Of a stretch of DNA of 64,000 nt, positions 4,961-64,000 are shown piece by piece (within the stretch, counting starts at the first letter, position 1; each line of letters begins with the position of its first letter). Both the position numbers and the translations under genes were made by a program. Location of the stretch: assembly GCA_044892525.1 (NCBI GenBank), contig CM097887.1, positions 74,028,001-74,092,000 on the forward strand, written 5' to 3'. The notes under the pieces are model-generated. The model made no database searches, had not been told where the DNA came from, and saw only the letters and a list, made by a program, of their open reading frames with translations. The DNA is from Schmidtea polychroa (taxonomy: Eukaryota).

Positions 4961-5532
4961 ATGTCGAATAATAAAGAAACGAAAATATATATCGCCCCAA
5001 ACCAAAATACAAATTTTGGATAAACTAAACAATCAAGAAAAAACAGCAGATATTGTCAGATATTTAATTTAAACGAGTCAACAATTAGATCGATCAAAAA
5101 TGCAGAAGAAAAGATTAGAAATTCTGTAGCGTCCGGATCATCTGTACTTACCACAATTATTGCTCGTCCGAGAGCAAGTGTAATGGAAAAAACGGAACAT
5201 GATCTCATAGTGTGGGTAGAAGATATGACAAAAAACGGCTTCCTTTGGACGGAAATGTAATCAAACAAAAGGCTCTAAAAATATTCAACTGTTTACAAGA
5301 AACTGAAGAATCCATAGAATATCTTTCCAGTCCCAAGTTTGTTGCCAGCAATGGATGGTTTGAAAAATTCAAAAAATGCCATTCATTTCACAACATTAAA
5401 ATGCATGGAGCAAAAGCATCCGCTGACGTAGATGCAGGTAAAACATATCCGGAAGAACTCCAGAAATTGATTCAAGAAAAGGGCTATTTGCCTGATCAGG
5501 TGTTTAACGCCAATGAAACCGGTTTATGGTAG
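4961..5532 (+). pseudogene. pogo/Tigger (CENP-B/TIGD1-like) transposase fragment, frameshifted and truncated
   Basis: FVASNGWFEKFKK.HSFHNIK..G..ASAD and YLPDQVFNANETGLW* (first DDE motif degraded, then stop). Upstream HTH-like pieces lie in shifted frames. No convincing pair of TIRs found. Confidence 0.85.
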
Positions 5533-6891: not shown

Positions 6892-8544
6892 GCCCATAAT
6901 CTAAAAAAAAATCAATAAATATATATTATAGGAAAAATGAAATTAAGTTAACATTGTCATATAAATGGCGACTCACCTCAACTGGTGTGCACACCAACGT
7001 ATATTATAGACAATGTTAACTTTCGCAGTTAGGTGTACAATGTAAATAAATCGTAGCCTTTGATTTAGCTCAGTAGAAATTATTTCCAACAGAAAACTAT
7101 AATTCCCAAATAGATTCCACCGCTATAAATAGATTAATTAGAAATTTAAAAATTAATTAATTATTCTTTAATTTTTTTTCAATTTTTTAAATATCTTTTC
7201 TTTTTAAATTTATTTTATATTTTTTTATCACTTTTTTAATTTTTTTGTACTTTTTAATAATTTTTATATATATTTTTTAATTTATTTTAATTATTTCAAC
7301 TAGGGGACCGAAATTAAAGACGGACAAATAGCATCTAGCGGTGGTCCACAAACCCGCTCGATTGCTCGATGATTATATTGTACACAGATACGCTAACTTT
7401 TCGCGAGTATTTACCCATTCGACACATTTCCAACTTTGATCATTCTGGTTTACACTGGAAACTGCACAAGGTGTTTAATGTTTATTACCTATAACCCAAC
7501 AAAATATTACTTTTTTAATTTGACATTGCGATTGTGTAACATCTAATTTAATAGTTTTGTGATTTCTTTTTTACAAGTTCCTGTCACTCTGTACGCGAAA
7601 CTATATATTAAATTTTAATTTTCCAGTTTTATATCAATGACAGAAATGCTGCCGTTGTAAACTATTTAACAAATTTCATCGGATGGTCATCTATTCAGAA
7701 ACATTTGTTCCAGATGTTTGCATTTGTCCAGTGTTTGATTTGTTTGGATCTAGTTTGGAAAATCTGTCTGACATTACTATCAGTGTTCCAGTTCCAAGAA
7801 CCTTTCCATTTTTCTTGAACCTTACCTTAAAGTTGTTTCTTCGAATCACAACATCTTGAAAATTATGCACATTATGCACATCCTTGCTGCAGCTGATCAA
7901 TAATGTGAATCCAAAAACAACAAGTGGTTAAACAACCCTTATCTCTCAGACATTGTGAGTGAGACTCTTGAATACTCTCGATCTCTTTTATTTTTCCCGA
8001 CCTGCAATTTATAAATTGATATCCAATCATGTCCTACCTGGCGCACTGAATCATTTGTTCGTTCGGACAGTTATGAGCTAAATAATTTTCGTTACAAAAA
8101 CATTTAATATTTTTCATATTTAAATTAAATTTTCTTTTTATATCGACTTATTGTCTTGAGTGAAATTCAATCAAATTCAATTCAACCTCTCCAATTGTTT
8201 CAAGTATATTTGGACCTTGATGTTTGACTTTGGCTGTCATCTCTTTAGGTAAAGTTTTATTGACGATGTTCCCCAATAGACATCCAGTATTGCCAGCCAA
8301 ATTTTTCATCTCCGATAAATAAATGATGATGCTTTTTCCAGCTTGAAATGACTTACTCATCAGTTCGTGGGAACAAACTTCTGAGAAATCACTAAATGTT
8401 CGAATTAATGCTTCCTTTGCTTATTCATGTTATTTCTTCATTTTGAAAAACCCCTTTCATTGAAATGAATGCCTTCCTTTTCAACGTATAGGGCAAAATC
8501 CTCTTTTTAATCATTATATCTATGGTATCGACATAATTAATCAA

Positions 8545-8738
8545 TGAATTTATTAAAAAGAGAACTTGAAGACTATAAATCAGTAATATATCGATGTTTG
8601 TTGATACTCACGAATTTTCGGCATTGCATTTTTCAAGAAAATTCACTTGAAAAAGGCAGTGCCGAAAATTCGTGAGTATCAACAAACATCGATATATTAC
8701 TGATTTATAGTCTTCAAGCTCTCTTTTTAATAAATTCA
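8545..8738. repeat. Near-perfect 194-bp palindrome (93-bp arms, 8-nt loop)
   Basis: Arm tgaatttattaaaaagag...cgaattttcggcattgcatttttcaag, loop aaaattca, then the reverse-complement arm. 3 mismatches counted by eye. Confidence 0.95.
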
Positions 8739-8789
8739 ATGGGAAAAATAATCAGTGGTGAAATTGGAAGAAATAAAAGTTCTTATAAT

Positions 8790-9880
8790 TGTTAGGTTCG
8801 ATGGGTATGTCTTCGAACTAACACAAAAATGTTCTATCTGACTCCACGTAAATAATTTATGCGCGTAGGTATAAATAAACAAGAAATATGATTTAAATAT
8901 TTATTTTTCAATTAAAAGATTATTCACACGTTTAAATAGATATATATATATATATAGGTACACCACGCTGCTTTCTCTAAGTATAGAAAACGGTTATTCA
9001 AACCGCCCTGAAGAGTGTTACTAAGTATCAAGGCTGGCCCTAAATGCGCCAACAGCCCGATATAGGTGAAAGGAAAAAGAGAACGGGACAATCACCAAAA
9101 TTTTCGCTATAGAGTTAACCCAGAAATTGGTTAACTCTTTTCAAATAATTATTGATAACGACACAACACAAAAATACGTGCTGACGTTATGATACCCCTT
9201 ATTTGAAATTACTTTAATTTGTTAAAATATAAACCGATTTGAAAATTACTTATAACTATTTAAATAATGATAAATACTAACTGATTTAATATCTTTACCA
9301 AATAACGTTATAATAGATAATCCACAAAATTAGCTTTCGATCCAATATTTCCAATACAAATTCTTCAATTTGATTGTCGATAAGACTAAATTCCCAAAAA
9401 TTCAAAACTAAATTTTCCTTTAATCGATGAAAATTATGCCAACTGTCACTTCGCCGAAAAATTAGTTTACGATAAAACCAAATTTCCCAAAATTCCAAAA
9501 CCTGACGAGAATTAGTTGGTTGCTAAAAATAGAATTGACTTCTTCTTCTCTAATTTCAGACACTGCGGTTTTCTGCCTTCTCACTTCGTCCCTCCTTCTA
9601 ATTTTTATCTATTATTTATACTAATTTATTTTACGTAATTCTATTAATAGTAATTGTTTAATTACTATTTTTATTATATATTTTAAATAATTTCTATAAT
9701 TCTATTTTTAGTAATTATTTATTACCAATTATATTTTAGTTTTAATTTTAGTATTTACTTTCTATTTTTGGTAATTTTAAAATACTATTTTTATTTTAAT
9801 CCTAATTTTGGTAATTAATTATTATTTTATTTATTATCTAATTTCGAACGTTTATTTCCGGTTCCTACTGAACCCCAACA
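8790..9880 (-). repeat. 3' LTR (1091 bp)
   Basis: Identical by eye to 22634-23738 except (TA)8 vs (TA)15. TGTT...AACA termini. Confidence 0.97.
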
Positions 9881-9882
9881 TG

Positions 9883-9892
9883 TCTTCCCCCT
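9883..9892 (-). promoter_or_regulatory. Polypurine tract (AGGGGGAAGA)
   Basis: Minus-strand purine run ending 2 nt before the 3' LTR. Confidence 0.8.
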
Positions 9893-10185
9893 AACAAGAT
9901 TTTCGTCCCGAAAATTAAAGCGGTAAAGGTAAGACAATTTGCAGCAGATACATAAAAAATAAAAATAAAATAAAATGAATCAACTGATTAAAATATATAT
10001 ATAAAGCAATCAAAGTCAAAATCAAAATAATCAAAAATTGTTAAACGAAATCAAGAATCAGATTAATCAAATGTTGTTCATAATGTCTATCAATTTGAAT
10101 ATCTGGATTGGATTGAGTTGTCGAAGGCGTTGGGATTGAGGACGTATAGCAAATTGCTAGGTCCATTGAACACATAGCCGAATTG

Positions 10186-12348
10186 CTAGTATTTTCTCCT
10201 TTTCATGACCTTGGCACTTTCGTTACGGATCCTTTGTTCTACAATGTCAGGTCTGTAACTGACCACCAAAGTCTCCCGTGTACTTACCTCTTTGTACACA
10301 ATTGAGGAGATGATATATGAGCCCTCATTAGCCTCCAATACTCCGTAATCGGGGAAATTGGATACGGCTACTTCATGGATTGGGCCTCCGTCGTATTCCT
10401 TGATACGCGGTTTCCATTTGCTGTCGGGTCTCTGCCACCAACTAGGATCTTCTCTGTCGAGATCTTCCCGTATTTTGATTGAGTTGCCCCTTCCGACGAA
10501 CTCGCCTTCCTTCACGATGATCGGCTCTCCTGTAATCGTGGGTTCACTCTTTGTTGCCAATATCTTGGTCAACGCGGGATCTGGTGGCTGATAGTGAGTT
10601 TCTAGGAGATTGTCATCCTCATCCTGGATGGATATCCTAGGCATTTTCTTTTTCGTACTCTTAGGAATCTCCTTTTTCCTTTTTGCGGAGATAGGGACAG
10701 TTTTCTCCTTGTCCTCTTTCTGGGGGAGTTTCTCCGTTGTTTTCTTTTTAAACTTCAAATCTTGTAGCTTAAGTAATGGTGCTACAGCTTGGGGTAACGT
10801 TCCTCCTTCTGCTCCTTGTTTGGGTTCACCCAACGGGGCCAATGCTTTCAGGATCTTGGTGACCCGTTCAACTAACTTTTCTGCTGGCTGTGGTTTGTCT
10901 ATTTCCATTTTAGCCGAATTCACCTCTCTACCGTCATTGGTAAGGGTGACTTGGAGGCAGTTATCGTCTGCACTCTCACAAGTGGCATAGTCGTCTTCAT
11001 CAGCAATTGAAATGGCTGGCGGCGACAAGGAATCTTCTTCCACTATTTTCAACAACTTTGACCTGGGGATATCTTCTTTCACATAGCTCTCCATAGCTAG
11101 AGGTTTCTGCCTGCTTGAGGTTCCGGGTTCCATCTGCTTTATTTGTGAAGACACCACCTCTTTCCGGGTGTCTGGTGAAATGTCATCAACCCAGATATCT
11201 CGTAAATTGTCGTAAATCTCCTTAATGGTTGTGACATCATTCTCCGTTTGTAGGTCCGAGAAGTGATGTGCCTCTTTACCGGTGACTGCTTTTGCTAGAT
11301 ATGCCAAACGGTAATACCCGTTGCATTTCTTTAGTTCCCTACTTTCGAGGCATTTAGCTGCGCCTAACTCACGAATTCCGAGTGCGCGCTGCATTGGGAA
11401 TCTGATTACTTCTAATAGGTCCTTTACTAGTAATCCCACGATGATCTTCCCATCGCAGATTTTTCTAATTCTTTCGGCACAGTCTTCTCCGTCGAACTGT
11501 CCTGTTATTTGTTTCTCGGTCATACCATGCGCATGCGATTGGTAATGTTTGACCTGTGCTCTGGGGGTGACTCTCGTGTTGAGTATTAGATCACCATTGA
11601 AGTGTGAGATCGAGATGGCCACGATTGCCGGTTTCAAAAATTGTCGTAATGTAGCGTAGTGAGCTGCTACGAAGATGGTGAGGTTATCCTCTTGTCTAGG
11701 GTCCATGCGCTGTCTAACGAAAGACTTGAATGTTTTAATGTCGTTATCGTTGACATTATATGTCCAGTTTGGGTCATTAACCCATCTCGTTTGTGTTTCT
11801 CTGTGAGGTTCCAGAATTTCCATTGCTATGATGGTATCTATACCTTCACATAACAGTGAGATGTTCTTTTCCCTTCCATCCCCGTTTTCTATCTCGAGGG
11901 TTGTGTGCTTTTGCAGCAAAATGGGGTTTGTGGCGCCAGGAACATAAACCGTAAATGGTTTGTTAATGGCGTGTATCCACAGGTGGTTGGTCAGACTATG
12001 TCTGCCAAACTCAGGCATGACATCGGTAAGCCTAATACTACCGTTATGCTTACCCGGGATTCTTGAGATGATCATTTGACGCTTTGGGGCCTCGTCAAAT
12101 TTAAAATTATTGGGTATGCCTGAACAATGACCGTAAAACCAGTGCCTTTGGCCTTTTCTACTTTGCTCCATAACCTGCTTCTCCAGGTTTTTATAAATAA
12201 GTTTTTCTTTTAGTAAGGTTGTAGCACGTATAATGCTATGTTTTCCTTGATATTGGGATATTGGGTGGCTCTGCATTCCTGAAATAAAAATCATTAACCA
12301 TAATATCAGATATACTGATATGCCATAATAGGCTAAAAAGATATGCAT
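10186..12348 (-). CDS. Accessory ORF (720 aa): N-terminal hydrophobic segment, DEDDh exonuclease-like domain (about 11190-11685, catalytic residues degenerate), long acidic/basic tail
   Basis: Intact 720-codon ORF inside the element. AISISHFNGDLILNTRVTP...VKHYQSHAHGMTEKQI...KICDGKIIVG...RLAYLAKAVTGK...ENDVTTIKEIY follows the ISG20/REX4 sequence pattern. Confidence 0.7.
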   Translation of the reverse strand: MHIFLAYYGISVYLILWLMIFISGMQSHPISQYQGKHSIIRATTLLKEKLIYKNLEKQVMEQSRKGQRHWFYGHCSGIPNNFKFDEAPKRQMIISRIPGKHNGSIRLTDVMPEFGRHSLTNHLWIHAINKPFTVYVPGATNPILLQKHTTLEIENGDGREKNISLLCEGIDTIIAMEILEPHRETQTRWVNDPNWTYNVNDNDIKTFKSFVRQRMDPRQEDNLTIFVAAHYATLRQFLKPAIVAISISHFNGDLILNTRVTPRAQVKHYQSHAHGMTEKQITGQFDGEDCAERIRKICDGKIIVGLLVKDLLEVIRFPMQRALGIRELGAAKCLESRELKKCNGYYRLAYLAKAVTGKEAHHFSDLQTENDVTTIKEIYDNLRDIWVDDISPDTRKEVVSSQIKQMEPGTSSRQKPLAMESYVKEDIPRSKLLKIVEEDSLSPPAISIADEDDYATCESADDNCLQVTLTNDGREVNSAKMEIDKPQPAEKLVERVTKILKALAPLGEPKQGAEGGTLPQAVAPLLKLQDLKFKKKTTEKLPQKEDKEKTVPISAKRKKEIPKSTKKKMPRISIQDEDDNLLETHYQPPDPALTKILATKSEPTITGEPIIVKEGEFVGRGNSIKIREDLDREDPSWWQRPDSKWKPRIKEYDGGPIHEVAVSNFPDYGVLEANEGSYIISSIVYKEVSTRETLVVSYRPDIVEQRIRNESAKVMKRRKY

Positions 12349-12471
12349 GAGTCTTCTAAAAGATCTACATATGCTGAATTTTAATGCTACCTGGAGCTCT
12401 ACGTAAATATAGATTTTAATATATATATAAATATTTATATATGATTTTTCCCTCGGGGGAGTCTGTAATTG

Positions 12472-13527
12472 TCATAATTGCGACATCAGTACTCCATCGT
12501 AAGCCCTTATGGCTTGTCTAAAATATAGCTTGGTCCAAATACCCATAGCTATCAGTGTAGTTACTAGCGATAGTACGGCCGATACCGTAATCCATACCCC
12601 TATGGGTATTTTCAGAATATATCCAACATTAAAGTTCGTGATGGCATTACAGTCACAACAGTTTGTCAGATTTGGGGGCGTTTGGCAAGATATTTGTTGG
12701 ATAGGTGGCAACTGTCTAAGATGTTGCCACATTGCGGGATGTATCACCATGTTCTCCTTGACGACTTTTGGTGGTGTTTTCGTTATAACAGGTTGTCTCA
12801 GAGGTAATATCTCCTCAAATACCTCGAACCACCTATCGTCCTCCCGTTTCCTCGGACTATAGTATATAACTAGAACCGAATATTCTACGGACTGATTTAG
12901 ATACATTTCTTGGGAGGGGGAGTTCTGATCTAACCATAATGTTCCTCTCGTGGTAGATCCGTCTAGAATGCTGATTTTCACCTTCTCCTCCCTGTTAATT
13001 TGCTGGCTAAACTTTACTTTCTCCTTCTCGTAGGATATCGATATGCGATTTGTGAAATCTGCCGTCCGTAGGATCCAATTAGATACGTGATAGGTATACC
13101 ACCCACTCTGATATAACTTTGATGCTGCAATATGCAGTTTATAATCCGTCTCGGCTTTTAAATCATATAAATCCCACTCTTTTTCTTCTGAATCGAGTTG
13201 GCGGACCCGCAAGTACTTGTTGTAGAAATGTAAACTGAATTTTGTGGCATTATCGCACGTTGTCAGAATGCTAATTCCGTTATACGTTCTTATAAAGTGT
13301 AAATGTTTCACTTGCATCGCCATAGGCTGAAAGTATGCCTTTCTATCCCTTTTTGCCATTGCCAAAGTCATCATACAGCTTATTATTAACAAAAAGGTTA
13401 CCGATTTTGGAACACCCCTTGATCTCAATGGGTATCGGTGTTCTTGTGGTTTTTCGGTAGTGTTTGGTTTCACTTGTTTTTCTGGTGCTTTTACTTTTGG
13501 ATTTCCAGAGGCTCCCTTTGTTGAGAT
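12472..13527 (-). CDS. Type I membrane protein (signal-like segment 13404-13354, FN3-like ectodomain motif, TM 12603-12535), in frame with integrase behind a TAA
   Basis: RYPLRSR then SVTFLLIISCMMTLAMA|KRDRK; LYDLKAETDYKLHIAAS; Cys cluster CQTPPNLTNCCDC; TM IGVWITVSAVLSLVTTLIAMGIW. The frame is open from the integrase stop onward. Confidence 0.75.
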   Translation of the reverse strand: MSTKGASGNPKVKAPEKQVKPNTTEKPQEHRYPLRSRGVPKSVTFLLIISCMMTLAMAKRDRKAYFQPMAMQVKHLHFIRTYNGISILTTCDNATKFSLHFYNKYLRVRQLDSEEKEWDLYDLKAETDYKLHIAASKLYQSGWYTYHVSNWILRTADFTNRISISYEKEKVKFSQQINREEKVKISILDGSTTRGTLWLDQNSPSQEMYLNQSVEYSVLVIYYSPRKREDDRWFEVFEEILPLRQPVITKTPPKVVKENMVIHPAMWQHLRQLPPIQQISCQTPPNLTNCCDCNAITNFNVGYILKIPIGVWITVSAVLSLVTTLIAMGIWTKLYFRQAIRAYDGVLMSQL

Positions 13528-14600
13528 TTAGCACTTTTTACACCGATTAGCATGCACCATTATTGGTTCTGCTTTTCTGTTGGCCACCAGTTGTAATATG
13601 AGATTTGTATCCGTGGTTCTCAATACCTCATATGGCCCTTTGAAATTTCGCATGAGTTTTGGTGATAAGCCTTTCTTGTTATAATGACTTTCCAACATCA
13701 CCTGGTCTCCAACCAATATACCATGATCCTTGGCTTTTCGGTCATGATAATCTTTGGATGCCTCCTGATTATATTTTATACTGAGGCCTGCTCTAGCCCA
13801 TGCTTCCTGCATTCTTTCCCGCATTTCCATTAGATAATCTTGCTGATCCAAGTACTGTGTTGCTTTAGGAAAAAACAACAGATCTACTGGCATTTTACTT
13901 TGTCTCAAATACATTAGGTAAAATGGTGTTTCACCTGTTCCTTCGTGTACTGCATTTCTATATGCAAATAAACAGGATGGAATGTGGATATCCCAATCCG
14001 TTTGCCCTGAATTTACATATGATGCTAACATATTAGCTAATGTTCCATTAAATCGCTCTACTAGCCCATCCGTCTGTGGGTGATATGGGGAAGTGTTCAA
14101 CTTTAAAACTCCGAAATAATCATTTATTCCTTTGAGCAAATTACTCATGAAATCAGCTCCCCGATCCGTTAATAGCTTCGTAGGTACTCCATACCTAAAG
14201 ACAATTTGTTCAACGAAAATTCTAGCTATCGTATCAGCTTTGTGATTAGGTATCGGGTAGGCTTCTGGCCACTTAGTCAAGTAGTCACAGAACACTAAGA
14301 TGTACTTGTTTCCGCTATTGGATTCTTTAAATGGCCCCAACACGTCCATTGCCGTCATTTCCATAGGTGTAGATGGTACTGGCATCGGCTTCATTGGCAC
14401 GTGTGGTTTCTTTCCGGTATTTCTTCTGGTGATACAGATCTTACATGTCTGACATCAGGTTTTAACTTCTTGTTTCATGCCGGGCCAAAAATATTTTTGT
14501 TTTAACCTTGACAATGTTTTTCTGGATGACAGGTGGCCTCCTAAGGCTCCATCGTGATACTGCAACATGAGTGCTTCACGGTATTTCTTAGGGACCATTA
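13528..14600 (-). CDS. Integrase (HHCC zinc finger, DDE core, GPY/F), split by an in-frame TGA at 14455-14457
   Basis: YHDGALGGHLS...EVKT*CQTCKIC; TAMDVLGP, LTDRGADF, DGLVERFNGTL; FKGPYEVL. 14454-14401 is an open 18-codon in-frame link. Confidence 0.95.
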
Positions 14601-17600
14601 CAACATTGTCTCTTACATCTGAATATTTGACTAATCCTTCCTCCAGCACAAACTTGTCCTTATTCTTTTCCCAGTATTTCGTGAATTCTGTGGGCACGTA
14701 TTTCGCTTCTAAGGCTTGTCGAATGACATTGATTTCTTCGTCAGCTTTTTGTGCCTCCATTAAATCAGCTAGCCGGTTGGCTTCTCGAGTCAGTGTGAAG
14801 ATAGTCCCTTCGAGACGTCCTTCCTTCACATCTTCTGCCTCCTCCTCCTGGTCCATTCTTGATAAAGCATCTGCATTTCCATTGTGATCTCCTTTTCTAT
14901 AATGGATTTCTATGTCATATGGCTGTAGAATTAATGCCCATCTGACCAGTTTTGATGTATCCATTGTGTGTTTCGTCAACCACTGTAATGGTCTATGATC
15001 GGTATACACTATGATCTTTCGACCCCATAGATAAGTCCTAAACTGGGTTATTGCATACACAATTGCTAAAGCCTCTAGTTCTATCACTGCGTAGTTTCTT
15101 TCATGCGGTTTTAATCCTCTGCTAGCGTATGCAATTGCATACTCATCTCCTAGGTCATCTCTCTGACCTAGCACAGCACCTATGCCCCGAGTGCTGGCAT
15201 CTGTCATAACCAAAAATTGTCTCTCAAAGTCTGGAAATCGCAATATAGGTGGCTTGATGAGTTTTTCCTTGAGCATATCAAATGCTTCTTGCTGTTCTGT
15301 TCCCCACACAAATTTGACATTTTTGCCTTCTAACTGCGTGAGTGGAAAAGCTATAACCGAAAAGTTTCTAATGAATTTTCTGTAGTATCCAACTAGACCT
15401 AAAAACCCTTTGATATGTTTAACGGTTTTAGGCTCCGGGAAATTCTTTACCTTTTCGACATTAGCTGGGTCGGGTTTAACCCCGTCTCGTGATATGATAT
15501 GGCCAACATATACCACTTCTGGTTCGGCCCATTTACATTTGGTCGGTTTCACTTTCATGTTGGCGTTAATCAACCTCTTGAACACATCTTCCAAATGTTC
15601 CAAGTGTTTTTCCAAATTTGGCGAGAATACTATAACGTCGTCAATGTATACCATCGCATGATGTACATCCATGAGCATCAAATTCATTGCTCTTTGAAAT
15701 GTGGCTGGAGCTCCGGTGAGTCCAAATGGCATTACGTTATATTCGTAATGACCCATACTCGTAGAAAACGCTGTTATTGGTATAGTCTCATCTTTTAGCT
15801 TAATTTGATAAAATCCCTTTTGGGCGTCCATTACTGAGAAGAACCTAGCGTTTCTCATGCGTCCATAGATATAATCTAACAATGGCAATGGATGGCTATC
15901 TTTGCATGTTGCTTCGTTAACCATGCGATAGTCGTTACATAATCGTACTGATCCATCCTTCTTGGCCACCACTATCATTGGTGATTGATATGGTGATTTA
16001 CTATGCCTGATTATGCCATGTTTTAACATCAGTTTCACCTGTTTATCTACTGATTCCTCCAGACTGAATGGAATACGGTATGGTCTCAACTTTATAGGTT
16101 TTGTATTGGTGAGAACAATCTCATGTTCTAACAAATTTGTCTTTCCCAGATCATATTCATGTTTCGCGAATACCTGGTCATATTTCCTCAATAACATATT
16201 TACTTGAATATTTTCTTTTCTAGTTAGCACTTTGCTGTTTACTGTAGGTGCATCGTAGTACTCAATGTCTGGATCTCTTTCTTCTGCCTTTACGGTGAGT
16301 ATTGACCCTTCTCCCGTAGCTTGTGGTTCGTTTTGTTTCCAGATTCTGCCCACTCTGGTATCTGGATATAAGTAAAGTGGTTTAATGTCCAGATTGGCTA
16401 CCCTGATTGGTATTCTGCCATTGACTATTAAACCTACGCTATGCGTTACTGGTATATTGTATTTCTCCGAGAATTTTTCGTTTGGTTCGAATACAACTTC
16501 ACCTTCCCAATTATTGCTTGTAGCTACAAAGCAAACTGTTTCCGCTCTGGGTGGTATGATAGTTGTATGATCTATATAAGCTGTATCATCATTGTAAATT
16601 TTTCTCTTTTTACCTCTCGCTCGGATTAACAATCCAGATGCACAGTCGAATACTACTCCTCGTAGTCTTTTTAGGATGTCCATACCCAATAGGCATTCGG
16701 CTGGGAGACTTCTCATCACTATGATGTCGTGATGGAGTTCCTGGTCGCATAGCTTAATCTGGCAGGATAATGATCCTATTACGTTTAATGAGGATCCGTT
16801 CGCTCCTGTTAATTTTACTCCTGCCGGTTTTAGCGACTGCAGTTCATGATGGTTTAACAATTTAGCTTCAATTATGGTACCGTCTGCTCCTGAGTCTATC
16901 ACCGCATTAACTGTATGTCGGTTCACTCTTATTTTTATCATTGGTTTTTTTTCCAAGTTCACTGGGTTATTGACCATCAAGATAGTATCGTGCGAGATAC
17001 CGATTGTATTGGCTCTCGTTTGTTCTGCTTCCAGTAATTCAGGATCACTCAGTTGGGGATTATACTCTTTGAATTTAGCTTTAATTGACTCTAACACTTC
17101 CTTTGGATAGTGCACTTTAAGTAATTCTGGCAATGTTGAGCATGTCAAATTATTAAATATGGTATCTTCACCGATTTTCCATTGGTGTCGTCCTGTTCTG
17201 AGTGTTGTTTCCCTCGAGTGTTCCCGCCCTTCGTTTGGTGCGGATGGTAAACTCCTCAAAGTTGGCAATTGTACGTATCTTGGACTTCTCTTGAATCTGG
17301 GTGACCTTATGTCGAATTTTTGGTCGGAACTGTCATATTCTCCTTCTGAGGACTGTTTTCTCACATAGATTTCCTTTGATTGGTCATATGGAGGAAGATA
17401 TTCCTTGAATCTCGATTTTCTTTGTTGCTGATTCGGTTTTTTGTTGTAGTTCTGTTTTCGTGATTGATTTGATCTTGAAGATGTCTCACGAGAGCCTCCA
17501 TTACCTCCTCCCTTTGAATTGTTATCGTCCCGATAACTCGAATACTCCTCCATTTCTGTTCCAATTACTTCATGTTTGACCAAATGTTTCTGTCTAATTT

Positions 17601-20600
17601 CTTTAATTTCCTTTCTGTGATGTTTGAATAATGCAAACTCTGCACACATAGGACATAGTCCTAATAGCAATTTCCATGACCATCCCCCAATTTTGAATAT
17701 GCTATATGTTGACATCAGTTGTGTAATTATCAGCTTTAAAATTACAAATATTGCGTAAATTCCTGAACAACCAGCAACGAAAATACCAAAATTGGTAAAT
17801 CGTCCCCATATTTTCATCATTACGTTCTTTGCTGCTTCTTTATAGTGTTCCGGTCCAAATAATAGATTGTAGTCTGGTCGTATCAAATTATCATGATAAA
17901 TTGTTCTTATAATTTCCGTGATACCTCTGTCTCTAATTTGTGGGAATAGCAATGTCCTTCTTGCTTCCTCGATATCGTCGGGAGTGTAAATCCCTCCTTT
18001 TGCTAAATCGTCTAATGACTTAAATTCCAGATTATCCTTTAATTTAGTTACCTCCAGGGTCTCTACCCGTTGTGTAGATGGTTTTCTTTCCGGCAGAGAT
18101 ATCCACATGTCATTTATTTTATATAATGGTGATATTGCCGGGTTGCATATAGCTGGTTGAGGTTTAGCGTTTTCCTCAAGTAACTTTCTGGTTACTGGCA
18201 TAACAAATCTCAATTTTCCTTGGTAAGACACTGGCAGTTCTAGAGTGCATTGATTAAATCTGGCTAATTGTACTTCCACTGGTTTACACTCATAGCTATA
18301 TATAGCTTCTCCCATGATTCTGCCAAACATTCCATCTTCCAATAACATTGGAGTAACCAACTCTGGGTTAACGATAGATATTGCTAGTCTATTTCGGACT
18401 ATTTCACGGTTTAGCTTGCAATCGTTTAGTATCACCTCTTGATACATATCTTGCATTTGTCCTTGCAAATCATGATATAAATAATCTACCTTATTATTTA
18501 TATAATTCGTGATTTTGATATCCTTTACATGTAGGACCTTGGAATTCCGGATATATTCTCTGGACAGGAAAATTCCTTTGTAGTTCGTCTCGTATACTCT
18601 TTTCCCACATTTAGTCCTTTTATCTTTTCGGACAAATCGAATTGCTTCCGTCTTGTCTTCCGATATCAATACTAGAGGTGTGTTTTCCTCTCCGATATCT
18701 TCCTTCTCTTGTTTGTTGATTTTCTTCAACGTTTTTGCTTTATCCCAAACCTTTTCTGGATTCTGGGAGTCCCGATATTTAGTTCCATTTAATTTTCTAA
18801 AAGGAATTTTCTTGAGGAAAGCCAACTCACAATGATCTCTCATTTGTTCGTAAATTAACGTAGTGGTTCCCGTTTTACAACTACCGAACTTGGCATTGCA
18901 TTGCGGATGTGCCATCAATTTTCCTGTGGCCACATCGAATGTTCCCTCGTATTCTCGTAGCTCCACTGAGTAATCTTCTATGTCTACCACATAGGAAACT
19001 AAATTGCTACCGCGAATTTTCTTTCTACCTTCGCATGTTCCGTCTGAAGCGATTGTTCCTCCTCGGGTGATTGTTATTCCCAAGGTTTTCCCAATTTCTG
19101 CTGAAATTGATACCTCGTTGTCTATCCTCACACTTCCTTTTCGAAATGCATCTAAGCAATCTTCGGGCATTATGTTTACCGGCCTTGGTATTAATGTTGC
19201 GGTTAGAAAAGCAGAATAGCTATTACTACCGCAATAATATTCGAACGTAGCTCTCTGAACTCTACATTCCTTTATCGTGGTTCTATAAAATTCACTCTCT
19301 TGGTAGACATAATATTCTACCTTTTCCCCTTGATGAACCTTCTCGGGGTACGCCTCTTTGCACTCAATTGCATCTACTAGCGAATATACCCGAGATAGTT
19401 TAGGGTTTCCACAGTCAAATACTGTTAATGAATTTGTTTGTTTTAATATGCCCATCATCACTAGGAACATCAGGATCATGCTTGTCATGTTTCCTGTGCC
19501 TGGACTACCATTATTTATGGCTTCTTCTACGACTTCAAATCGTGGTTTTGGAATCGTTTCTTTTTCCCAAAATTTGTTTACGGTCATCCATACCTCCAGG
19601 TAATAATCTACCATTTCGACTATTTGATCGATTTCTCGTTCTATAAGCCTTTTATCATCCCCTATCCGGGCCAAGGCATTTTGAATTAACAATGATAAAG
19701 ATGTTACCACTTTCCCTCTTGTTAACCCTTGCTGCACGAATGCTTCTATGACATCCTGGGTATCTCTTGTTGTTACATCTTTGGATACTCTGTCCATTGT
19801 CTTCTTGACCTCTTTTGTTATTTTCTTTACTTCGATCCCCTTGATTTTTGGAATTCTCCATTCGGGCCTGATAATCCCGATCATTTGTTGTATACGTTGC
19901 CACAATAACGACCTTTCTGCTGTTGTCTCATCTCCCGCCTGGTCGTCCATTTCTTGAGCTATCCCTGCTAATGTTTTTAACTGAATTTTCCGAATCGTTT
20001 CCGGATTTAACTGCTCCTTGGGTGGAGGTTTCATCTGATCCTTTCTAGGACGTCCTCGTGCATCTTTTTTCACTTTCTCCGGAGGTTTTTCATTCTCCAG
20101 ATTTGTTACTGCTTGTGACGTAGTAGCTCCTACGTTTGTTTCTCCTGGGTTTAATCTGATGTATTCTGAGAAGTAATCTTCCTCGTCAATGTCCACCATT
20201 TGACAGGGATTAATTTCCTCTAGTCTTATTTCCTCAATTTCTTCCGCAATTTGGTTTGCTATATCTGGCAGTCTCATTAATGACCACTGGGACTCTGGTG
20301 GAGTTACTGGGATGATCATTACCGTGGTTGTTGCCAGCGGTAGACAACCCACATCCACTAAATATTCATCGTCATCCACTTGCCTGCCATGGACCATTAT
20401 CAGGAATATACCTGTAGTCTGATCGGTGGCAATTACATCTCTCCTCAATATTTTAACCTTGATATAGCAATTATAAATCATTGTTAATGGTTCTTTTCCC
20501 ATCATTCGCACGTCTAGATTAATGTTGCCTTGTCTATCAGGCTGACTTCGGATAGCTTTCCCATTTTTCCTCATCAGCGCTTCAATTTGCGTCTGGAATG

Positions 20601-21882
20601 GGCTTGTTTCCTTTACCACTGGTAGTATAAGTGGAATTATTGCTTCCAACAAATCTACTGGTATACGCAATACTAACATCCAGTCAAGTATTTCCTTTAT
20701 AGTTTCTCCATCTCGTGGAGATTTCTGCAATTCCAACCCTAGTCGCTGGGTTAATTGTTGGGTTTCTTCCAATCTCTCTATTTCCATTTGAGTAATCAAG
20801 AATACGCTATCTTGATCCATTACTGCTACTGGCTTCTGTGCTCTCTTTGCTATGAGCTTTGTCACTCTACCTGGGAGTATCCCGTTCTGTAGAAGTGTTT
20901 GATTTGCTTCTAATTTTACTCCACATAAGTATAAGTCATATCCTTGATGCTTAATACTTGTCAATGTTTCCTTTAATTTATCGGCTCGACTTCTTACATT
21001 TATATCGAGATTATACTCTTTATCCTGTGGGAGTTTTATATTGAGCTGGGCATCTTGGAGATCCCACTCATGTTCCAAGAGTTTTCCTAATTTCCTTAGG
21101 ATTTTGTACGTGTCGTTATGATACTTTGGATCATCTTCGACCTGCGATATCAGTTTTACTACTGTATCGATTTCGTGAATTTTAATTTCTGTTTCTCCCA
21201 ATTTTCCCAATTGTCTGGCCAGCTTCTGCTGGTACTCATATCTGGAATCCACCAGTTTTAAACATTTTGTTAGGGTATCTGACCCTTCTTTTACCTTTGC
21301 TTTCCCTGTCAAGGTTCTATCGAACTCGCTTAGTATGGTGGCCATACTAGGTTCATCATCGGAACTCTCCTCTGATTCCGTTTCCTGAAGGTCCTCTCTA
21401 ACGGAGTCCTTTTTTCTGAGATACTCATCTCTTCCAACTTCTACCATGAAGATGGTGCCTTCTTGGTCGGTCAATCTAGCCAACCTATTCTTTTCTTCCT
21501 GGATTTCCATTTCCAGTTGTTGCAGATACGTTAACCCTTGATCCTGGTTAACCATGAAAGTTGTCTTAGACTTGTTCACATTACCCTTATCGGTATTTTT
21601 TTTGAACTGACTCGTGTTTCCACTCTGGTTCTGAGGACATGACCTCATCATATGTCCGAATTTCCCACATCCGTGACATTTTATCTTTCCTGATGAATTT
21701 ACATCATCTCTTTTGATTGTACTAAAATTATTGCTGTTCTGAGGACTTCTAGTCTTGCAGACCGCAGCAACATGTCCCTTTCGCTTACATTTTTCGCATT
21801 GCAAATTCTGCACTCTACAATTTTCCGCACTGTGGTTATTCCGTCCACATTTGGTACATTGTATACTTTTACGATTGTCCAT
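14455..21882 (-). CDS. Gag(NC)-X-Env-Pol polyprotein: 3 intact CCHC knuckles, UBL, unknown region, glycoprotein, aspartic protease (VIDSGA, about 16900), dUTPase-like linker, RT (VYIDD, about 15640), RNase H (TDAS, about 15200), start of integrase
   Basis: 2475-aa ORF with canonical Gypsy motifs PYRIP, LCNDYR, MPFGL..APATFQRAM, YIDD, GFLGLVGYYRKFI, TDASTRGIGAVL, TDHRPL, NADALSR. Confidence 0.95.
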   Translation of the reverse strand: MDNRKSIQCTKCGRNNHSAENCRVQNLQCEKCKRKGHVAAVCKTRSPQNSNNFSTIKRDDVNSSGKIKCHGCGKFGHMMRSCPQNQSGNTSQFKKNTDKGNVNKSKTTFMVNQDQGLTYLQQLEMEIQEEKNRLARLTDQEGTIFMVEVGRDEYLRKKDSVREDLQETESEESSDDEPSMATILSEFDRTLTGKAKVKEGSDTLTKCLKLVDSRYEYQQKLARQLGKLGETEIKIHEIDTVVKLISQVEDDPKYHNDTYKILRKLGKLLEHEWDLQDAQLNIKLPQDKEYNLDINVRSRADKLKETLTSIKHQGYDLYLCGVKLEANQTLLQNGILPGRVTKLIAKRAQKPVAVMDQDSVFLITQMEIERLEETQQLTQRLGLELQKSPRDGETIKEILDWMLVLRIPVDLLEAIIPLILPVVKETSPFQTQIEALMRKNGKAIRSQPDRQGNINLDVRMMGKEPLTMIYNCYIKVKILRRDVIATDQTTGIFLIMVHGRQVDDDEYLVDVGCLPLATTTVMIIPVTPPESQWSLMRLPDIANQIAEEIEEIRLEEINPCQMVDIDEEDYFSEYIRLNPGETNVGATTSQAVTNLENEKPPEKVKKDARGRPRKDQMKPPPKEQLNPETIRKIQLKTLAGIAQEMDDQAGDETTAERSLLWQRIQQMIGIIRPEWRIPKIKGIEVKKITKEVKKTMDRVSKDVTTRDTQDVIEAFVQQGLTRGKVVTSLSLLIQNALARIGDDKRLIEREIDQIVEMVDYYLEVWMTVNKFWEKETIPKPRFEVVEEAINNGSPGTGNMTSMILMFLVMMGILKQTNSLTVFDCGNPKLSRVYSLVDAIECKEAYPEKVHQGEKVEYYVYQESEFYRTTIKECRVQRATFEYYCGSNSYSAFLTATLIPRPVNIMPEDCLDAFRKGSVRIDNEVSISAEIGKTLGITITRGGTIASDGTCEGRKKIRGSNLVSYVVDIEDYSVELREYEGTFDVATGKLMAHPQCNAKFGSCKTGTTTLIYEQMRDHCELAFLKKIPFRKLNGTKYRDSQNPEKVWDKAKTLKKINKQEKEDIGEENTPLVLISEDKTEAIRFVRKDKRTKCGKRVYETNYKGIFLSREYIRNSKVLHVKDIKITNYINNKVDYLYHDLQGQMQDMYQEVILNDCKLNREIVRNRLAISIVNPELVTPMLLEDGMFGRIMGEAIYSYECKPVEVQLARFNQCTLELPVSYQGKLRFVMPVTRKLLEENAKPQPAICNPAISPLYKINDMWISLPERKPSTQRVETLEVTKLKDNLEFKSLDDLAKGGIYTPDDIEEARRTLLFPQIRDRGITEIIRTIYHDNLIRPDYNLLFGPEHYKEAAKNVMMKIWGRFTNFGIFVAGCSGIYAIFVILKLIITQLMSTYSIFKIGGWSWKLLLGLCPMCAEFALFKHHRKEIKEIRQKHLVKHEVIGTEMEEYSSYRDDNNSKGGGNGGSRETSSRSNQSRKQNYNKKPNQQQRKSRFKEYLPPYDQSKEIYVRKQSSEGEYDSSDQKFDIRSPRFKRSPRYVQLPTLRSLPSAPNEGREHSRETTLRTGRHQWKIGEDTIFNNLTCSTLPELLKVHYPKEVLESIKAKFKEYNPQLSDPELLEAEQTRANTIGISHDTILMVNNPVNLEKKPMIKIRVNRHTVNAVIDSGADGTIIEAKLLNHHELQSLKPAGVKLTGANGSSLNVIGSLSCQIKLCDQELHHDIIVMRSLPAECLLGMDILKRLRGVVFDCASGLLIRARGKKRKIYNDDTAYIDHTTIIPPRAETVCFVATSNNWEGEVVFEPNEKFSEKYNIPVTHSVGLIVNGRIPIRVANLDIKPLYLYPDTRVGRIWKQNEPQATGEGSILTVKAEERDPDIEYYDAPTVNSKVLTRKENIQVNMLLRKYDQVFAKHEYDLGKTNLLEHEIVLTNTKPIKLRPYRIPFSLEESVDKQVKLMLKHGIIRHSKSPYQSPMIVVAKKDGSVRLCNDYRMVNEATCKDSHPLPLLDYIYGRMRNARFFSVMDAQKGFYQIKLKDETIPITAFSTSMGHYEYNVMPFGLTGAPATFQRAMNLMLMDVHHAMVYIDDVIVFSPNLEKHLEHLEDVFKRLINANMKVKPTKCKWAEPEVVYVGHIISRDGVKPDPANVEKVKNFPEPKTVKHIKGFLGLVGYYRKFIRNFSVIAFPLTQLEGKNVKFVWGTEQQEAFDMLKEKLIKPPILRFPDFERQFLVMTDASTRGIGAVLGQRDDLGDEYAIAYASRGLKPHERNYAVIELEALAIVYAITQFRTYLWGRKIIVYTDHRPLQWLTKHTMDTSKLVRWALILQPYDIEIHYRKGDHNGNADALSRMDQEEEAEDVKEGRLEGTIFTLTREANRLADLMEAQKADEEINVIRQALEAKYVPTEFTKYWEKNKDKFVLEEGLVKYSDVRDNVVMVPKKYREALMLQYHDGALGGHLSSRKTLSRLKQKYFWPGMKQEVKT
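17626..19488 (-). CDS. Embedded envelope glycoprotein domain, chuvirus (Jingchuvirales) G / herpes gB-like class III fusogen
   Basis: Internal signal-like MILMFLVMMGILKQTNS|LTVFDC, Cys-rich ectodomain, GEAIYSYECKPVEV...CTLELPV...RFVMPVTRKL...CNPAISPLYKINDMW, GGIYTPDDIE, C-terminal TM FGIFVAGCSGIYAIFVILKLII. The family call is recalled motif similarity, not a search. Confidence 0.8.
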
Positions 21883-21927
21883 AATTTTCCTACTGGTACA
21901 ATCTTTCGCTATATGCCCTTTTCTATG

Positions 21928-22533
21928 TCAATTGAAACACTCTACCGGTGTTCTTTCACTGTTTACCAGGAACATGGTTGACTTTTCCAAGCTGCTTTCA
22001 ATTACGACAGCTTTCCGTGTCAATTCGTCAAAATCGTCGCTAGTATGTAATATTAGAGCGTTCCTCATTGTAGGAGTAAGTCCTGCCCATAGCTGATCCT
22101 TAACTAACAATTCTGTTGGCTTTGCCCATGTGGTTTTTGGTCCAAATGCTCTTTCAGCAATTAAAGATAGCTGGTGTGCAAATTCCCCCACATGTTCATT
22201 GGCATTCTGTTTTCGATGGTAAAATTGTTGTCTAAATATTCTTCCCGCATCTCCGGGCAATATTCGAGCAGTCATTTGTTCTCTCATTTCGGCCCATGTT
22301 TTCGGTACTTGAGCAACTGGTAATGCCATAATGTCATTATATTTTTCTCTTGCCAGCCCCTTCAAATATATAGGCAGCCTTTGTATCATGATATTATCTG
22401 GATAGGCGTATGCTTTGGCCATCTGATAATATTCAGACATAAACTCTGGGAATTCTCCCGGATCACCGCTGAATGCCTTTACGGGCAGAGCGGGATATCT
22501 GGCAAATGCATTTACATTAGCTTCCTCTGCCAT
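21928..22533 (-). CDS. Gag capsid domain (retrotransposon gag), ending at an in-frame TGA inside the first zinc knuckle
   Basis: PVKAFSGDPGEF...LPIYLKGLAREKY...RKQNANEHVGEFAHQL...DQLWAGL. Reading on through the stop gives CFN*HRKGHIAKDC, in frame with 21882. Confidence 0.9.
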   Translation of the reverse strand: MAEEANVNAFARYPALPVKAFSGDPGEFPEFMSEYYQMAKAYAYPDNIMIQRLPIYLKGLAREKYNDIMALPVAQVPKTWAEMREQMTARILPGDAGRIFRQQFYHRKQNANEHVGEFAHQLSLIAERAFGPKTTWAKPTELLVKDQLWAGLTPTMRNALILHTSDDFDELTRKAVVIESSLEKSTMFLVNSERTPVECFN

Positions 22534-22610
22534 TTGATTTTCCAGTTTTACTCTGGTTCTAGTTCCTAACGCTATTTTGTTTTAATTCAATATATACCCG
22601 CTGATAATTT

Positions 22611-22630
22611 GAATCACGTCGGGCTCACCA
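22611..22630 (-). promoter_or_regulatory. Primer-binding site complementary to the 3' end of tRNA-Trp
   Basis: Minus strand TGGTGAGCCCGACGTGATTC, 3 nt after the 5' LTR. The complement GAATCACGTCGGGCTCACCA matches the metazoan tRNA-Trp 3' end (…AATCACGTCGGGGTCACCA) with 1 mismatch. Confidence 0.85.
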
Positions 22631-22633
22631 AAA

Positions 22634-22781
22634 TGTTAGGTTCGATGGGTATGTCTTCGAACTAACACAAAAATGTTCTATCTGACTCCACGTAAATAAT
22701 TTATGCGCGTAGGTATAAATAAACAAGAAATATGATTTAAATATTTATTTTTCAATTAAAAGATTATTCACACGTTTAAAT

Positions 22782-22816
<35 letters not shown>

Positions 22817-23738
22817 TACACCACGCTGCTTTCTCTAAGTATAGAAAACGGTTATTCAAACCGCCCTGAAGAGTGTTACTAAGTATCAAGGCTGGCCCTA
22901 AATGCGCCAACAGCCCGATATAGGTGAAAGGAAAAAGAGAACGGGACAATCACCAAAATTTTCGCTATAGAGTTAACCCAGAAATTGGTTAACTCTTTTC
23001 AAATAATTATTGATAACGACACAACACAAAAATACGTGCTGACGTTATGATACCCCTTATTTGAAATTACTTTAATTTGTTAAAATATAAACCGATTTGA
23101 AAATTACTTATAACTATTTAAATAATGATAAATACTAACTGATTTAATATCTTTACCAAATAACGTTATAATAGATAATCCACAAAATTAGCTTTCGATC
23201 CAATATTTCCAATACAAATTCTTCAATTTGATTGTCGATAAGACTAAATTCCCAAAAATTCAAAACTAAATTTTCCTTTAATCGATGAAAATTATGCCAA
23301 CTGTCACTTCGCCGAAAAATTAGTTTACGATAAAACCAAATTTCCCAAAATTCCAAAACCTGACGAGAATTAGTTGGTTGCTAAAAATAGAATTGACTTC
23401 TTCTTCTCTAATTTCAGACACTGCGGTTTTCTGCCTTCTCACTTCGTCCCTCCTTCTAATTTTTATCTATTATTTATACTAATTTATTTTACGTAATTCT
23501 ATTAATAGTAATTGTTTAATTACTATTTTTATTATATATTTTAAATAATTTCTATAATTCTATTTTTAGTAATTATTTATTACCAATTATATTTTAGTTT
23601 TAATTTTAGTATTTACTTTCTATTTTTGGTAATTTTAAAATACTATTTTTATTTTAATCCTAATTTTGGTAATTAATTATTATTTTATTTATTATCTAAT
23701 TTCGAACGTTTATTTCCGGTTCCTACTGAACCCCAACA
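22634..23738 (-). repeat. 5' LTR (1105 bp)
   Basis: Direct repeat of 8790-9880. The 14-bp length difference is entirely in the TA microsatellite. AATAAA on the minus strand at 22744-22749. Confidence 0.97.
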
Positions 23739-24597: not shown

Positions 24598-24733
24598 TTA
24601 AAAGATAAAATTAATGTAATATAAAAAAATAAAAATCTAATAAATGTAAAGGTCAGAGTATAGAGATAAAACCTCCTAAATTTGCTACATTAAAACAAAA
24701 CACTCGATGAGTTCTTTTAATATTATTTGCTAT

Positions 24734-39700: not shown

Positions 39701-40247
39701 CTATTAATTAAATATGATCAATTAAAGCTATTCGTTGATGGAAAGTATCTGAAGAATTTCTGTACCGTTGAAATGGCATTCCAGCAATCAACAATTTCTC
39801 TGATAATAAAATCATCCAATAAAATGTTTGAAAAAATACAATTAATGATTTCAGCCAATAAAATGAGTTTCGGAATCGATCGGTACGGAACTCCTTACAC
39901 AATAAAAACCGAGTACGATTATTCTCCAAATAGTGTTCTGATTAAAATGAACTCGTCATTTAAACAGTTGTCAAAATTCACTCTTCATGTTCAACCGAAT
40001 CAAATCAAATTGGAACTCAACGAATTCCACCAACAAATCGACTATATTCTCACCCAACACCATGTCAAACTTATTTCCATAAACAACTTCCAACCAATCC
40101 GCTATATACTCTGCGAAGTTCTTATTGAAAATCCCAATAATGCCATGTGGAAACTGACTGTTGATTCTTTCGACACGGTATCGAAAATAAAATTCACAAA
40201 CGATAAATTAAGTTTTGAAAATCGAAACAACTATTTCCGTGTCCGGT
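24734..40247 (+). repeat. First unit of a tandem segmental duplication (visible part; partner is 48487-64000, offset 23,753 bp)
   Basis: All ORF-track entries recur at exactly +23,753. Only scattered substitutions and no net indel were seen. Confidence 0.97.
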
Positions 40248-63900: not shown

Positions 63901-64000
63901 TGGAAACTGACTGTTGATTCTTTCGACACGGTATCGAAAATAAAATTCACAAACGATAAATTAAGTTTTGAAAATCGAAACAACTATTTCCGTGTCCGGT
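48903..64000 (+). CDS. Second copy of the large lipid transfer protein gene (incomplete; giant exon from 52963 runs off the window)
   Basis: Same exons at +23,753. No stop is seen in the giant exon up to 64000, which explains its absence from the ORF track. Confidence 0.9.

Follow-up and report, generated by a model that had tools for sequence, protein, structure and literature searches.

Schmidtea polychroa contig CM097887.1 (GCA_044892525.1) carries, within the 64,000-nucleotide stretch analyzed here (positions 74,028,001 to 74,092,000 of the forward strand; hereafter the window), a single minus-strand frame of 12,348 nt, or 4,116 codons (22533 to 10186), with internal stops at codons 202 (TGA), 2693 (TGA), 3002 (TAA), and 3354 (TGA) and a terminal TAG at 10186-10188. 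The question raised by this locus is whether all four internal stops tune the expression of one giant protein through readthrough, as a preliminary description had proposed, or whether only some of them do. The frame is real coding sequence, because shuffled sequence contains at least 244 in-frame stops (200 shuffles), and the existence of one such frame with four internal stops was confirmed. Spacers of 15, 18, 18, and 41 codons had also been described behind the stops; those of 15 and 41 codons do equal the distance to the next ATG. For the two of 18 codons, that ATG lies 20 and 51 codons away; they reflect non-ATG starts of the open reading frame track rather than true intergenic spacers. 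The features of the element are as follows, in window coordinates.

22634 to 23738, minus strand: 5' LTR (TG...CA), a direct repeat of the 3' LTR
22613 to 22630, minus strand: primer-binding site, beginning TGG, just inside the 5' LTR
21931 to 22533, minus strand: Gag capsid region at the polyprotein start (Retrotrans_gag, E 4.8e-4, under the curated cut-off)
21928 to 21930, minus strand: stop 1 (TGA), private, within a CCHC zinc knuckle (a stop in 1/30 loci, the window only)
19500 to 21927, minus strand: zinc knuckles (zf-CCHC), then about 600 residues without a Pfam match
17584 to 19485, minus strand: fusion glycoprotein of the gB type (Monjiviricetes-like), lying in frame after gag and ahead of the protease (PF24664, E 5e-87)
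14461 to 16953, minus strand: aspartic protease, reverse transcriptase, RNase H, and the first half of the integrase zinc-binding domain (Pfam)
14455 to 14457, minus strand: stop 2 (TGA), within the integrase zinc-binding domain (a stop in 2/30 loci)
13531 to 14454, minus strand: remainder of the integrase (rve, E 3e-9)
13528 to 13530, minus strand: stop 3 (TAA), private, just past the integrase (a stop in 1/30 loci)
12475 to 13527, minus strand: post-integrase membrane protein, its layout matched in public polyproteins
12466 to 12474, minus strand: stop 4 (TGA) with the 3' hexamer CAATTA, the fixed polyprotein end and a candidate readthrough site
12277 to 12471, minus strand: 65-codon in-frame spacer under nucleotide-level constraint, with an upstream Met at 12348
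12279 to 12300, minus strand: T-rich 3' splice-acceptor-like site, AG at 12280-12279, 2 nt upstream of Met 12276
10186 to 12276, minus strand: accessory ORF from Met 12276 (structure model pLDDT 85)
about 12291 to 11800, minus strand: predicted AlkB-like jelly-roll fold
about 11682 to 11179, minus strand: predicted ISG20/REXO4-like DEDDh exonuclease fold
9881 to 9892, minus strand: polypurine tract
8790 to 9880, minus strand: 3' LTR

The element spans 8790-23738 (15 kb) and is a young Ty3/gypsy LTR element (Metaviridae) with the order gag, gB-type env, pol, and membrane protein. It has two TG...CA LTRs, which align over 1,109 columns with 1 mismatch and 14 gap positions, a primer-binding site that may be tRNA-Trp-like, a polypurine tract, and a 4-bp target-site duplication on both flanks (ATTA, a weak indicator in AT-rich DNA), and its domains, as identified with Pfam, follow the order PR-RT-RH-IN. 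Its gag is 57% identical to that of a sister family, in which the region between gag and env is in the same frame and 37% identical. The gB-type glycoprotein, whose upstream boundary was placed by eye from the translation, has a hydrophobic segment at 17787-17737 (hydropathy). At the family level env lies in one frame with gag and pol, as seen across copies, related families, and public polyproteins, and env precedes RT and IN in 13 public single polyproteins of 2,627-4,057 aa. The family encodes one 3,353-codon polyprotein comprising Gag, an unknown domain, the gB-type Env, PR, RT, RH, IN, and a second membrane protein. It is made without a frameshift, and cleavage is presumably due to its own protease and to signal peptidase. 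The preliminary description was right about the absence of frameshifts and about a protease-processed mega-polyprotein, with the cutting itself presumed.

The gag-env-pol layout is of the known Burro-like kind. The giant planarian gypsy elements Burro and GYPSM1 likewise carry Env in frame between gag and pol, encode a huge polyprotein, and have accessory ORFs (PMC6431247), although Burro exceeds 30 kb and the element described here, at half that length or less, is without BIR, MATH, BCL2, or ankyrin cargo (Pfam). A post-integrase membrane protein, a nuclease ORF, and readthrough are not described for Burro in the portion of PMC6431247 covered here. The GAG-ENV-POL errantiviruses with an HSV/gB-type Env from Nematoda, Bryozoa, and Platyhelminthes also combine a Ty3/gypsy pol with a class III-type env before pol and are multi-copy and recent (PMC13524379), and the nematode elements of Sacco et al. 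2022, as cited there, are of the same kind. The class III-type glycoprotein between gag and protease that characterizes errantivirus/Burro-like elements is present in this one as well. The main text of PMC13524379 has no matches for readthrough, exonuclease, fibronectin, splic-, or polyprotein; the present family may appear in its supplements.

A comparison of genomic copies, which the preliminary description had suggested as a way to see which stops are fixed, returned stop 4 alone (30/30 loci). Stops 1, 2, and 3 are open in 29/29, 28/29, and 29/29 of the other copies compared. Related elements are uninterrupted where the window has these stops, and related families continue for 375-440 residues beyond the integrase, past the equivalent of stop 3. 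Scattered stops are common in the family (12/29 other copies in the gag stretch and 10/29 in the pol stretch). On the opposing side, 3 nonsense changes among the 14 near-private substitutions of the window copy are slightly above expectation (P 0.04). Stops 1 to 3 are nonsense mutations of the window copy, that is, ordinary decay, because they are nearly absent from other copies, and stops 1 and 2 split zinc-binding domains. A model in which all four stops are programmed and together set the product ratio can point to the one frame without frameshifts and to the C that follows stop 1 as well as stop 4, but with stops 1 to 3 private or nearly so, two of them interrupting zinc-binding domains, and related elements open at these places, it retains hardly any credibility. 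In the explanation that we favor, which we consider probable as a whole, the window copy is a recent and now non-autonomous insertion of an env-carrying Ty3/gypsy family.

Stop 4 is a different matter. TGA CAATTA is identical in 58/64 loci, the other 6 not being contiguously aligned across the site, although this 9-mer is only modestly distinctive, as 23/1,341 windows are equally invariant. The codon is directly followed by CARYYA, the TMV-type motif of PMC7026636 and PMC4132726, for which the chance is 0.0025 by composition, and a reporter carrying UGA-CAAUUA showed readthrough of about 15% (PMC4132726). The spacer downstream is in frame and stop-free in 50/57 copies, the one length change that is common among them adds 3 nt, and 65 open codons would arise by chance with a probability of 0.0034 (shuffles). 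Shared variants in the spacer have no third-position excess (3, 3, 1), and so give no amino-acid-level signal, and the stretch immediately after stop 4 has no significant hairpin (z -1.0 to -1.5). Judging from sequence, readthrough at stop 4 is likely. A minority of ribosomes would read past UGA-CAAUUA, so that the membrane protein continues across the spacer and on into the accessory ORF.

The equivalent junctions of relatives are informative in this regard. Two of them, L174 and L175, cluster with the window at 99/99 in an integrase tree composed of the window and unnamed relatives. The L174 junction is TGA CAA, with a hairpin of z about -6 and 709 open codons that contain a homologous accessory ORF; the L175 junction, from a decayed copy with no assigned downstream ORF, is TGA CGG with a hairpin of z -4.1 and 87 open codons. 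By contrast, two sister families in the same genome that are closer to the window than L174 have TAG or TAA followed by GGGGAA, and the frame of both closes 7-13 codons past the stop; readthrough is therefore dispensable in the clade. Overall, UGA-C with an open frame is found in 3/5 clade junctions, and the exact CARYYA is found in the family of the window only. A search of viral contigs found no relative, and a search of genome contigs found one contig, which ends before the junction; L179 also runs off. A -1 frameshift into the accessory ORF was considered for one sister family, in which the ORF lies in the -1 frame, shares an overlap of 17 codons with the pol end, and has a hairpin spanning the stop. 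It was rejected on account of that family's own sister, in which a stop closes this frame 6 codons upstream of the Met. Of the preliminary proposal of stop-codon readthrough, the part concerning stop 4 remains likely, given its classic context and the recurrence of UGA-C in distant relatives, and the part concerning stops 1 to 3 fails.

It is also possible that no functional readthrough takes place, stop 4 being an ordinary terminator, the accessory ORF being expressed only from RNA that is spliced, in cis or in trans, or started internally, and the open spacer and CAATTA being by-products of splice and other cis signals. In 9/12 families an acceptor-like AG is found no more than 11 nt from the starting Met, as against 0/28 downstream Mets (a criterion set post hoc), the closest homologues of the accessory ORF are called from the Met equivalent to 12276, next to the acceptor, and 29/31 positions in 12300-12270 are invariant across 58 copies. 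Furthermore, 8/11 junctions close within 45 codons, constraint on the spacer is at the nucleotide level (third-position shared variants 1/65 vs 96/318), and a rotifer paper states that spliced messages are the usual source of ORF3 expression (PMC5408684). This explanation does not account for the fact that the three TGA-C junctions, and no others, are followed by long open stretches in frame, with strong hairpins at two of them, and we regard the explanation as unlikely. The preliminary description had named spliced RNAs initiating each downstream ORF as an outcome that would speak against it, and this holds in part, with a conserved acceptor-like site 2 nt before the starting Met of the homologues. 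Thus, a single leaky stop combined with a spliced start is the best reading of the locus, and on present sequence comparisons a fairly probable one: the accessory ORF would be made mainly from spliced RNA using the acceptor before Met 12276, with readthrough contributing the fusion. A splice donor candidate lies near the gag start in the window and is not clearly common to the sister family. Retrotransposed spliced copies were sought among five indel copies near stop 4 and rejected, as these break at scattered places and none at the acceptor; a sixth locus examined there consists of the accessory ORF only. In contigs from four sequencing runs, no informative joint turned up among 15 listed of 63, a result that points in neither direction. 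As a separate observation, CAATTACAG could itself act as a 3' splice site, which counts against the readthrough reading.

The predicted structure of the accessory protein combines two folds, followed by a charged C-terminal region. Its model matches ISG20 with Z 18.8 (rmsd 2.9, 162 aligned), a DnaQ-like fold, and ISG20L2 in Foldseek (E 1.5e-8); it matches ALKBH6 with Z 11.2 (rmsd 4.2, 146 aligned), and several AlkB and prolyl-hydroxylase chains score Z 9.8-11.2 over residues 20-183 within the whole-protein model. The ExoI D-x-E pair is absent from the accessory ORF of the window and present in 15/31 aligned rows, and RNase_T matches 13/31 aligned homologues. Residues 20-183 contain no H-x-D/E of the AlkB iron-binding triad, and one His is conserved in 27/31 rows. 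No exonuclease domain was found in 120 long polyproteins, a point against the readthrough reading, and word-index protein searches with the accessory ORF returned no match of near or greater length, a weak negative. These models and alignments suggest that the accessory protein is a pseudo-nuclease whose catalytic residues were lost in one clade.

The loss of catalytic motifs from the accessory ORF of the window, together with the absence of amino-acid-level constraint on the spacer, would also fit readthrough that serves RNA stability, with the passage of ribosomes shielding the genomic RNA from nonsense-mediated decay and the fusion protein being incidental. Protection of RNA from nonsense-mediated decay by readthrough is familiar from retroviruses, and here the pol stop is followed by several kb of genomic RNA. 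The leaky context is missing, however, from sister families whose 3' regions are just as long, and we consider this explanation decidedly doubtful.

Termination at stop 4 also has a plausible product of its own. The post-integrase protein has a signal-like segment (13404-13354), a beta-rich ectodomain, a transmembrane segment (12597-12547), and a tail ending S-Q-L. The ectodomain was modeled poorly (pLDDT 43, best Z 6.7), and its predicted resemblance to fibronectin III is a lead only. A C-terminal [ST]-x-[VLI] precedes the polyprotein stop in 10/10 junctions examined, and this ending is found in 10/19 clade proteins vs 2/101 others. Stop 4 leaves this conserved S/T-x-hydrophobic motif free, possibly for PDZ binding. 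Our literature search found no description, for such elements, of a second membrane protein with a PDZ-type tail behind the integrase or of an AlkB-fold/ISG20-like accessory protein.

Individual parts of this arrangement have precedents. In the Sirevirus SIRE1, an env-like ORF behind pol is reached by stop-codon suppression (via PMC2829016); as here, one in-frame stop after pol stands before an accessory 3' ORF. SIRE1 is a plant Ty1/copia element, whereas the present one is an animal Ty3/gypsy element with a pseudo-nuclease ORF and a splice-acceptor-like start. The SIRE1 context is presumably also of the CARYYA type. The rotifer LTR elements Vesta and Juno share a nuclease-fold accessory ORF, in their case a DEDDy exonuclease ORF3 (PMC5408684), and an orchid gypsy element shares an AlkB-fold one (PMC9289625). 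Unlike in these elements, the nuclease here is ISG20/REXO4-like, both folds are in one protein, and the window copy has neither the ExoI acidic pair nor HxD/E.

These results carry a caution, in that recoding should not be read from a single transposon copy, as ordinary decay accounts for the greater part of what looks striking here. More tentatively, the clade may have kept programmed UGA readthrough over deep divergence by way of CAAUUA, CAA plus a hairpin, and CGG plus a hairpin, yielding three products, one possibly a decoy. If so, the locus would produce a surface protein whose PDZ-type tail is free and two forms of the AlkB-fold/ISG20-like pseudo-nuclease, one tethered to the membrane and made by readthrough, the other soluble and made by splicing, and the pseudo-nuclease might act as a decoy against host RNA defense. 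Stop 4 itself is a candidate for readthrough of the SIRE1 kind behind pol, in a clade of animal Ty3/gypsy elements, and the membrane protein and accessory modules bear on the cell-to-cell movement of env-carrying elements and on host RNA surveillance.

Translation of the minus strand from 22533 to 10186 gave 4,116 codons in a single frame, with internal stops only at codons 202, 2693, 3002, and 3354 (TGA at 21928, TGA at 14455, TAA at 13528, and TGA at 12472; stops 1 to 4), against at least 244 stops in that frame in shuffled sequence, confirming the one-frame, four-stop structure of the preliminary description. Pfam places gag first, then CCHC knuckles and a Monjiviricetes-type fusion glycoprotein (E 5e-87), followed by protease, RT, RNase H, and integrase; the frame lies between two LTRs:

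23738-22634, minus strand, 5' LTR, direct repeat of the 3' LTR
9880-8790, minus strand, 3' LTR, direct repeat of the 5' LTR

The LTRs are nearly identical (1 mismatch and 14 gap positions), a PBS and a PPT border them on the internal side, and a 4-bp duplication flanks the element, which indicates a young insertion. The 3' end of the PBS (22611-22613) is one base longer than in 28 of 29 other copies. The same domain order occurs in a single ORF in 13 public proteins of 2,627-4,057 aa, and a sister family whose RT is 75% identical to that of the window also runs from gag to pol in one frame.

Searches of the element's own genome returned 40 and 41 DNA matches, the best 30 of each were extracted, and each locus, the window included, was scored at each stop position as stop or sense only. 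Among these best 30, stop 1 is present in one locus, stop 2 in two (the window and one other copy), stop 3 in one, and stop 4 in all 30. The family thus has a single frame up to stop 4, with three private breaks in this copy, and stops 1 to 3 are decay: stop 1 breaks a CCHC knuckle, stop 2 breaks the integrase zinc-binding domain, and other copies carry scattered stops of their own in the gag (12/29) and pol (10/29) stretches. The window has 13 private substitutions, two of them nonsense, per 8,943 covered sites, with 16500-19700 outside the coverage of the other copies. Counting stop 2, the nonsense share (3/14) is slightly high relative to the 5.6% expected (P 0.04), a mild excess attributable to the window having been picked for its stops. 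Expression tuned by all four stops had been proposed, with a comparison of copies as the check on which are fixed; the proposal fails for the first three and survives for stop 4, a candidate readthrough site.

Past the integrase, the frame continues as a membrane protein: a signal-like segment leads into an ectodomain, followed by a TM helix and a short tail. Related families carry the same extension of 375-440 residues. This membrane protein is 27% identical to that of a sister family, versus 86% for the integrase. Compared with other copies (13200-11700), the window looks mosaic: its nearest copies match it at 99.8% in gag and the accessory ORF but at only 97.5% across pol and the membrane-protein region. 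The polyprotein ends in S/T-x-V/L/I at all 10 junctions examined, and in 10 of 19 public clade proteins, chosen by eye for long tails, versus 2 of 101 other gypsy proteins. We take this tail to be a class I PDZ-binding motif, and since such motifs function only at a free C-terminus, we infer that most ribosomes terminate at stop 4, the true end of the polyprotein.

Several features nevertheless suggest that a fraction of ribosomes may continue. At stop 4, 58 of 64 loci share the identical sequence TGA CAATTA, and the remaining six lack a contiguous alignment there. CARYYA is the TMV readthrough signal (PMC7026636), and in a mammalian reporter it supported ~15% readthrough when placed after UGA (PMC4132726). 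Its chance occurrence is 0.0025, and the motif had no role in the choice of window. Of 57 copies, 50 keep the 65-codon spacer between stop 4 and Met 12276 of the accessory ORF in frame and open; its sole widely shared length variant is +3 nt (32 copies), and shuffled spacers remain open in 2.4% (41 codons) or 0.34% (65 codons) of cases. Shared third-position variants number 1/65 in the spacer versus 96/318 in the flanks (P 3e-8, indicative only, as the copies are related). Against readthrough, this constraint could be entirely splice signal, CAATTACAG is itself acceptor-like, and the spacer shows no signal at the amino-acid level.

Two elements from outside the genome join the window's family in the integrase tree (99/99). 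In L174, whose integrase is 66% identical, the stop reads TGA CAA, with a hairpin (z ~ -6) and 709 in-frame codons past the stop, the homologous ORF included. L175, a decayed copy, carries the second classic viral readthrough context, TGA CGG, with a hairpin (z -4.1) and 87 open codons. Among 11 junctions, long open frames follow exactly three, and these are the three with TGA-C; at the remaining eight the stop is TAG or TAA, and the frame closes within 45 codons. On the other side, the leaky stop with an open frame is absent from the two closest sister families, no significant hairpin was found after stop 4 in the window, and a search of 120 long polyproteins revealed no fusion of polyprotein and accessory protein. 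On balance, we consider selected readthrough at stop 4 probable. The spacer would add at least one hydrophobic segment to the product, so that the nuclease fold could come to lie in either the cytosol or the lumen.

The accessory ORF may also have its own message. Its four best homologues have their first residue aligned with Met 12276 rather than Met 12348, and a T-rich tract ending in AG, resembling sites that precede inferred host exons within the window, lies 2 nt upstream of Met 12276. From 12300 to 12270, 29 of 31 sites are invariant across 58 copies, and by a criterion set after viewing, 9 of 12 families have an acceptor-like site at most 11 nt from the starting Met, compared with 0 of 28 downstream Mets. 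A spliced message is the usual expression route for such ORFs (PMC5408684). The conserved acceptor-like site and the homologue starts point to a spliced subgenomic RNA as the source of the accessory protein. This speaks in part against the preliminary description, which was right that there is no frameshift but preferred readthrough and proteolysis to separate ORFs.

The accessory ORF has 74 homologues, with an RNase_T match in 13 of 31 aligned. In a structure model from the homologue alignment (pLDDT 85), residues 223-390 match ISG20 (Z 18.8 by structure comparison; Foldseek E 1.5e-8 to ISG20L2) and residues 20-183 resemble AlkB or prolyl-hydroxylase folds (Z 9.8-11.2). The ExoI D-x-E pair, kept in 15 of 31 aligned rows, and H-x-D/E are both absent from the window's ORF, so its protein is probably a pseudo-enzyme. 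The same exonuclease-fold ORF occurs in at least seven other families of this genome (loci L111-L125, L141-L169, and L181-L204), where env precedes pol wherever the extracted sequence reaches that far, and in several of which the polyprotein ends in E-T-x-V with a second stop immediately after. Three elements from outside the genome (L176, L177, and L178) have two accessory ORFs, 1.9 kb past the pol stop; in L177 and L178 the second ORF is short and truncated and is homologous to the first. Two clade members in bacterial MAG records (L180 and P0087; Turicibacter and Flavobacteriaceae labels) are probably eukaryotic contamination.

The window also holds a tandem duplicate (24728-40247 and 48481-64000; 99.8% identical over 15.5 kb, spacing 23,753 nt), either a recent duplication or an assembly artefact, of a vitellogenin/apolipophorin-like gene with Vitellogenin_N, open beta-sheet, VWD, C8, and VWA domains and a single 5,277-codon open stretch (29210-45043). 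Other neighbours are:

969-2767, plus strand, Fascin gene exons
5203-5532, plus strand, transposase relic (HTH_Tnp_Tc5)
8542-8741, near-perfect inverted repeat of 200 nt, MITE-like, with 96-nt arms (96%), ~50 nt from the 3' LTR
46270-46782, minus strand, transposase relic (DDE_Tnp_1_7)

Stop 4 is fixed in a conserved context, and a conserved acceptor-like site lies upstream of Met 12276. In the mechanism that we propose, the polyprotein would be cut by proteolytic processing, its tail motif would be bound by a PDZ protein, and the accessory ORF would be expressed by splicing, with some readthrough at stop 4; the pseudo-nuclease may have a role of its own. In planarian Burro elements, env sits between gag and pol and shares their frame (PMC6431247), and a GAG-ENV-POL order with gB-type Env is described in nematodes, bryozoans, and flatworms (PMC13524379); the present element has a compact Burro-like or GAG-ENV-POL layout but is not Burro proper. 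The plant element SIRE1 offers a precedent for readthrough after pol (as cited in PMC2829016), and the window's element is a candidate for the same. Exonuclease and AlkB accessory ORFs occur separately, in rotifer gypsy elements (PMC5408684) and an orchid gypsy element (PMC9289625), whereas both folds are probably combined here. The combination of these features was not found described in the literature searched, which covered few subscription papers.
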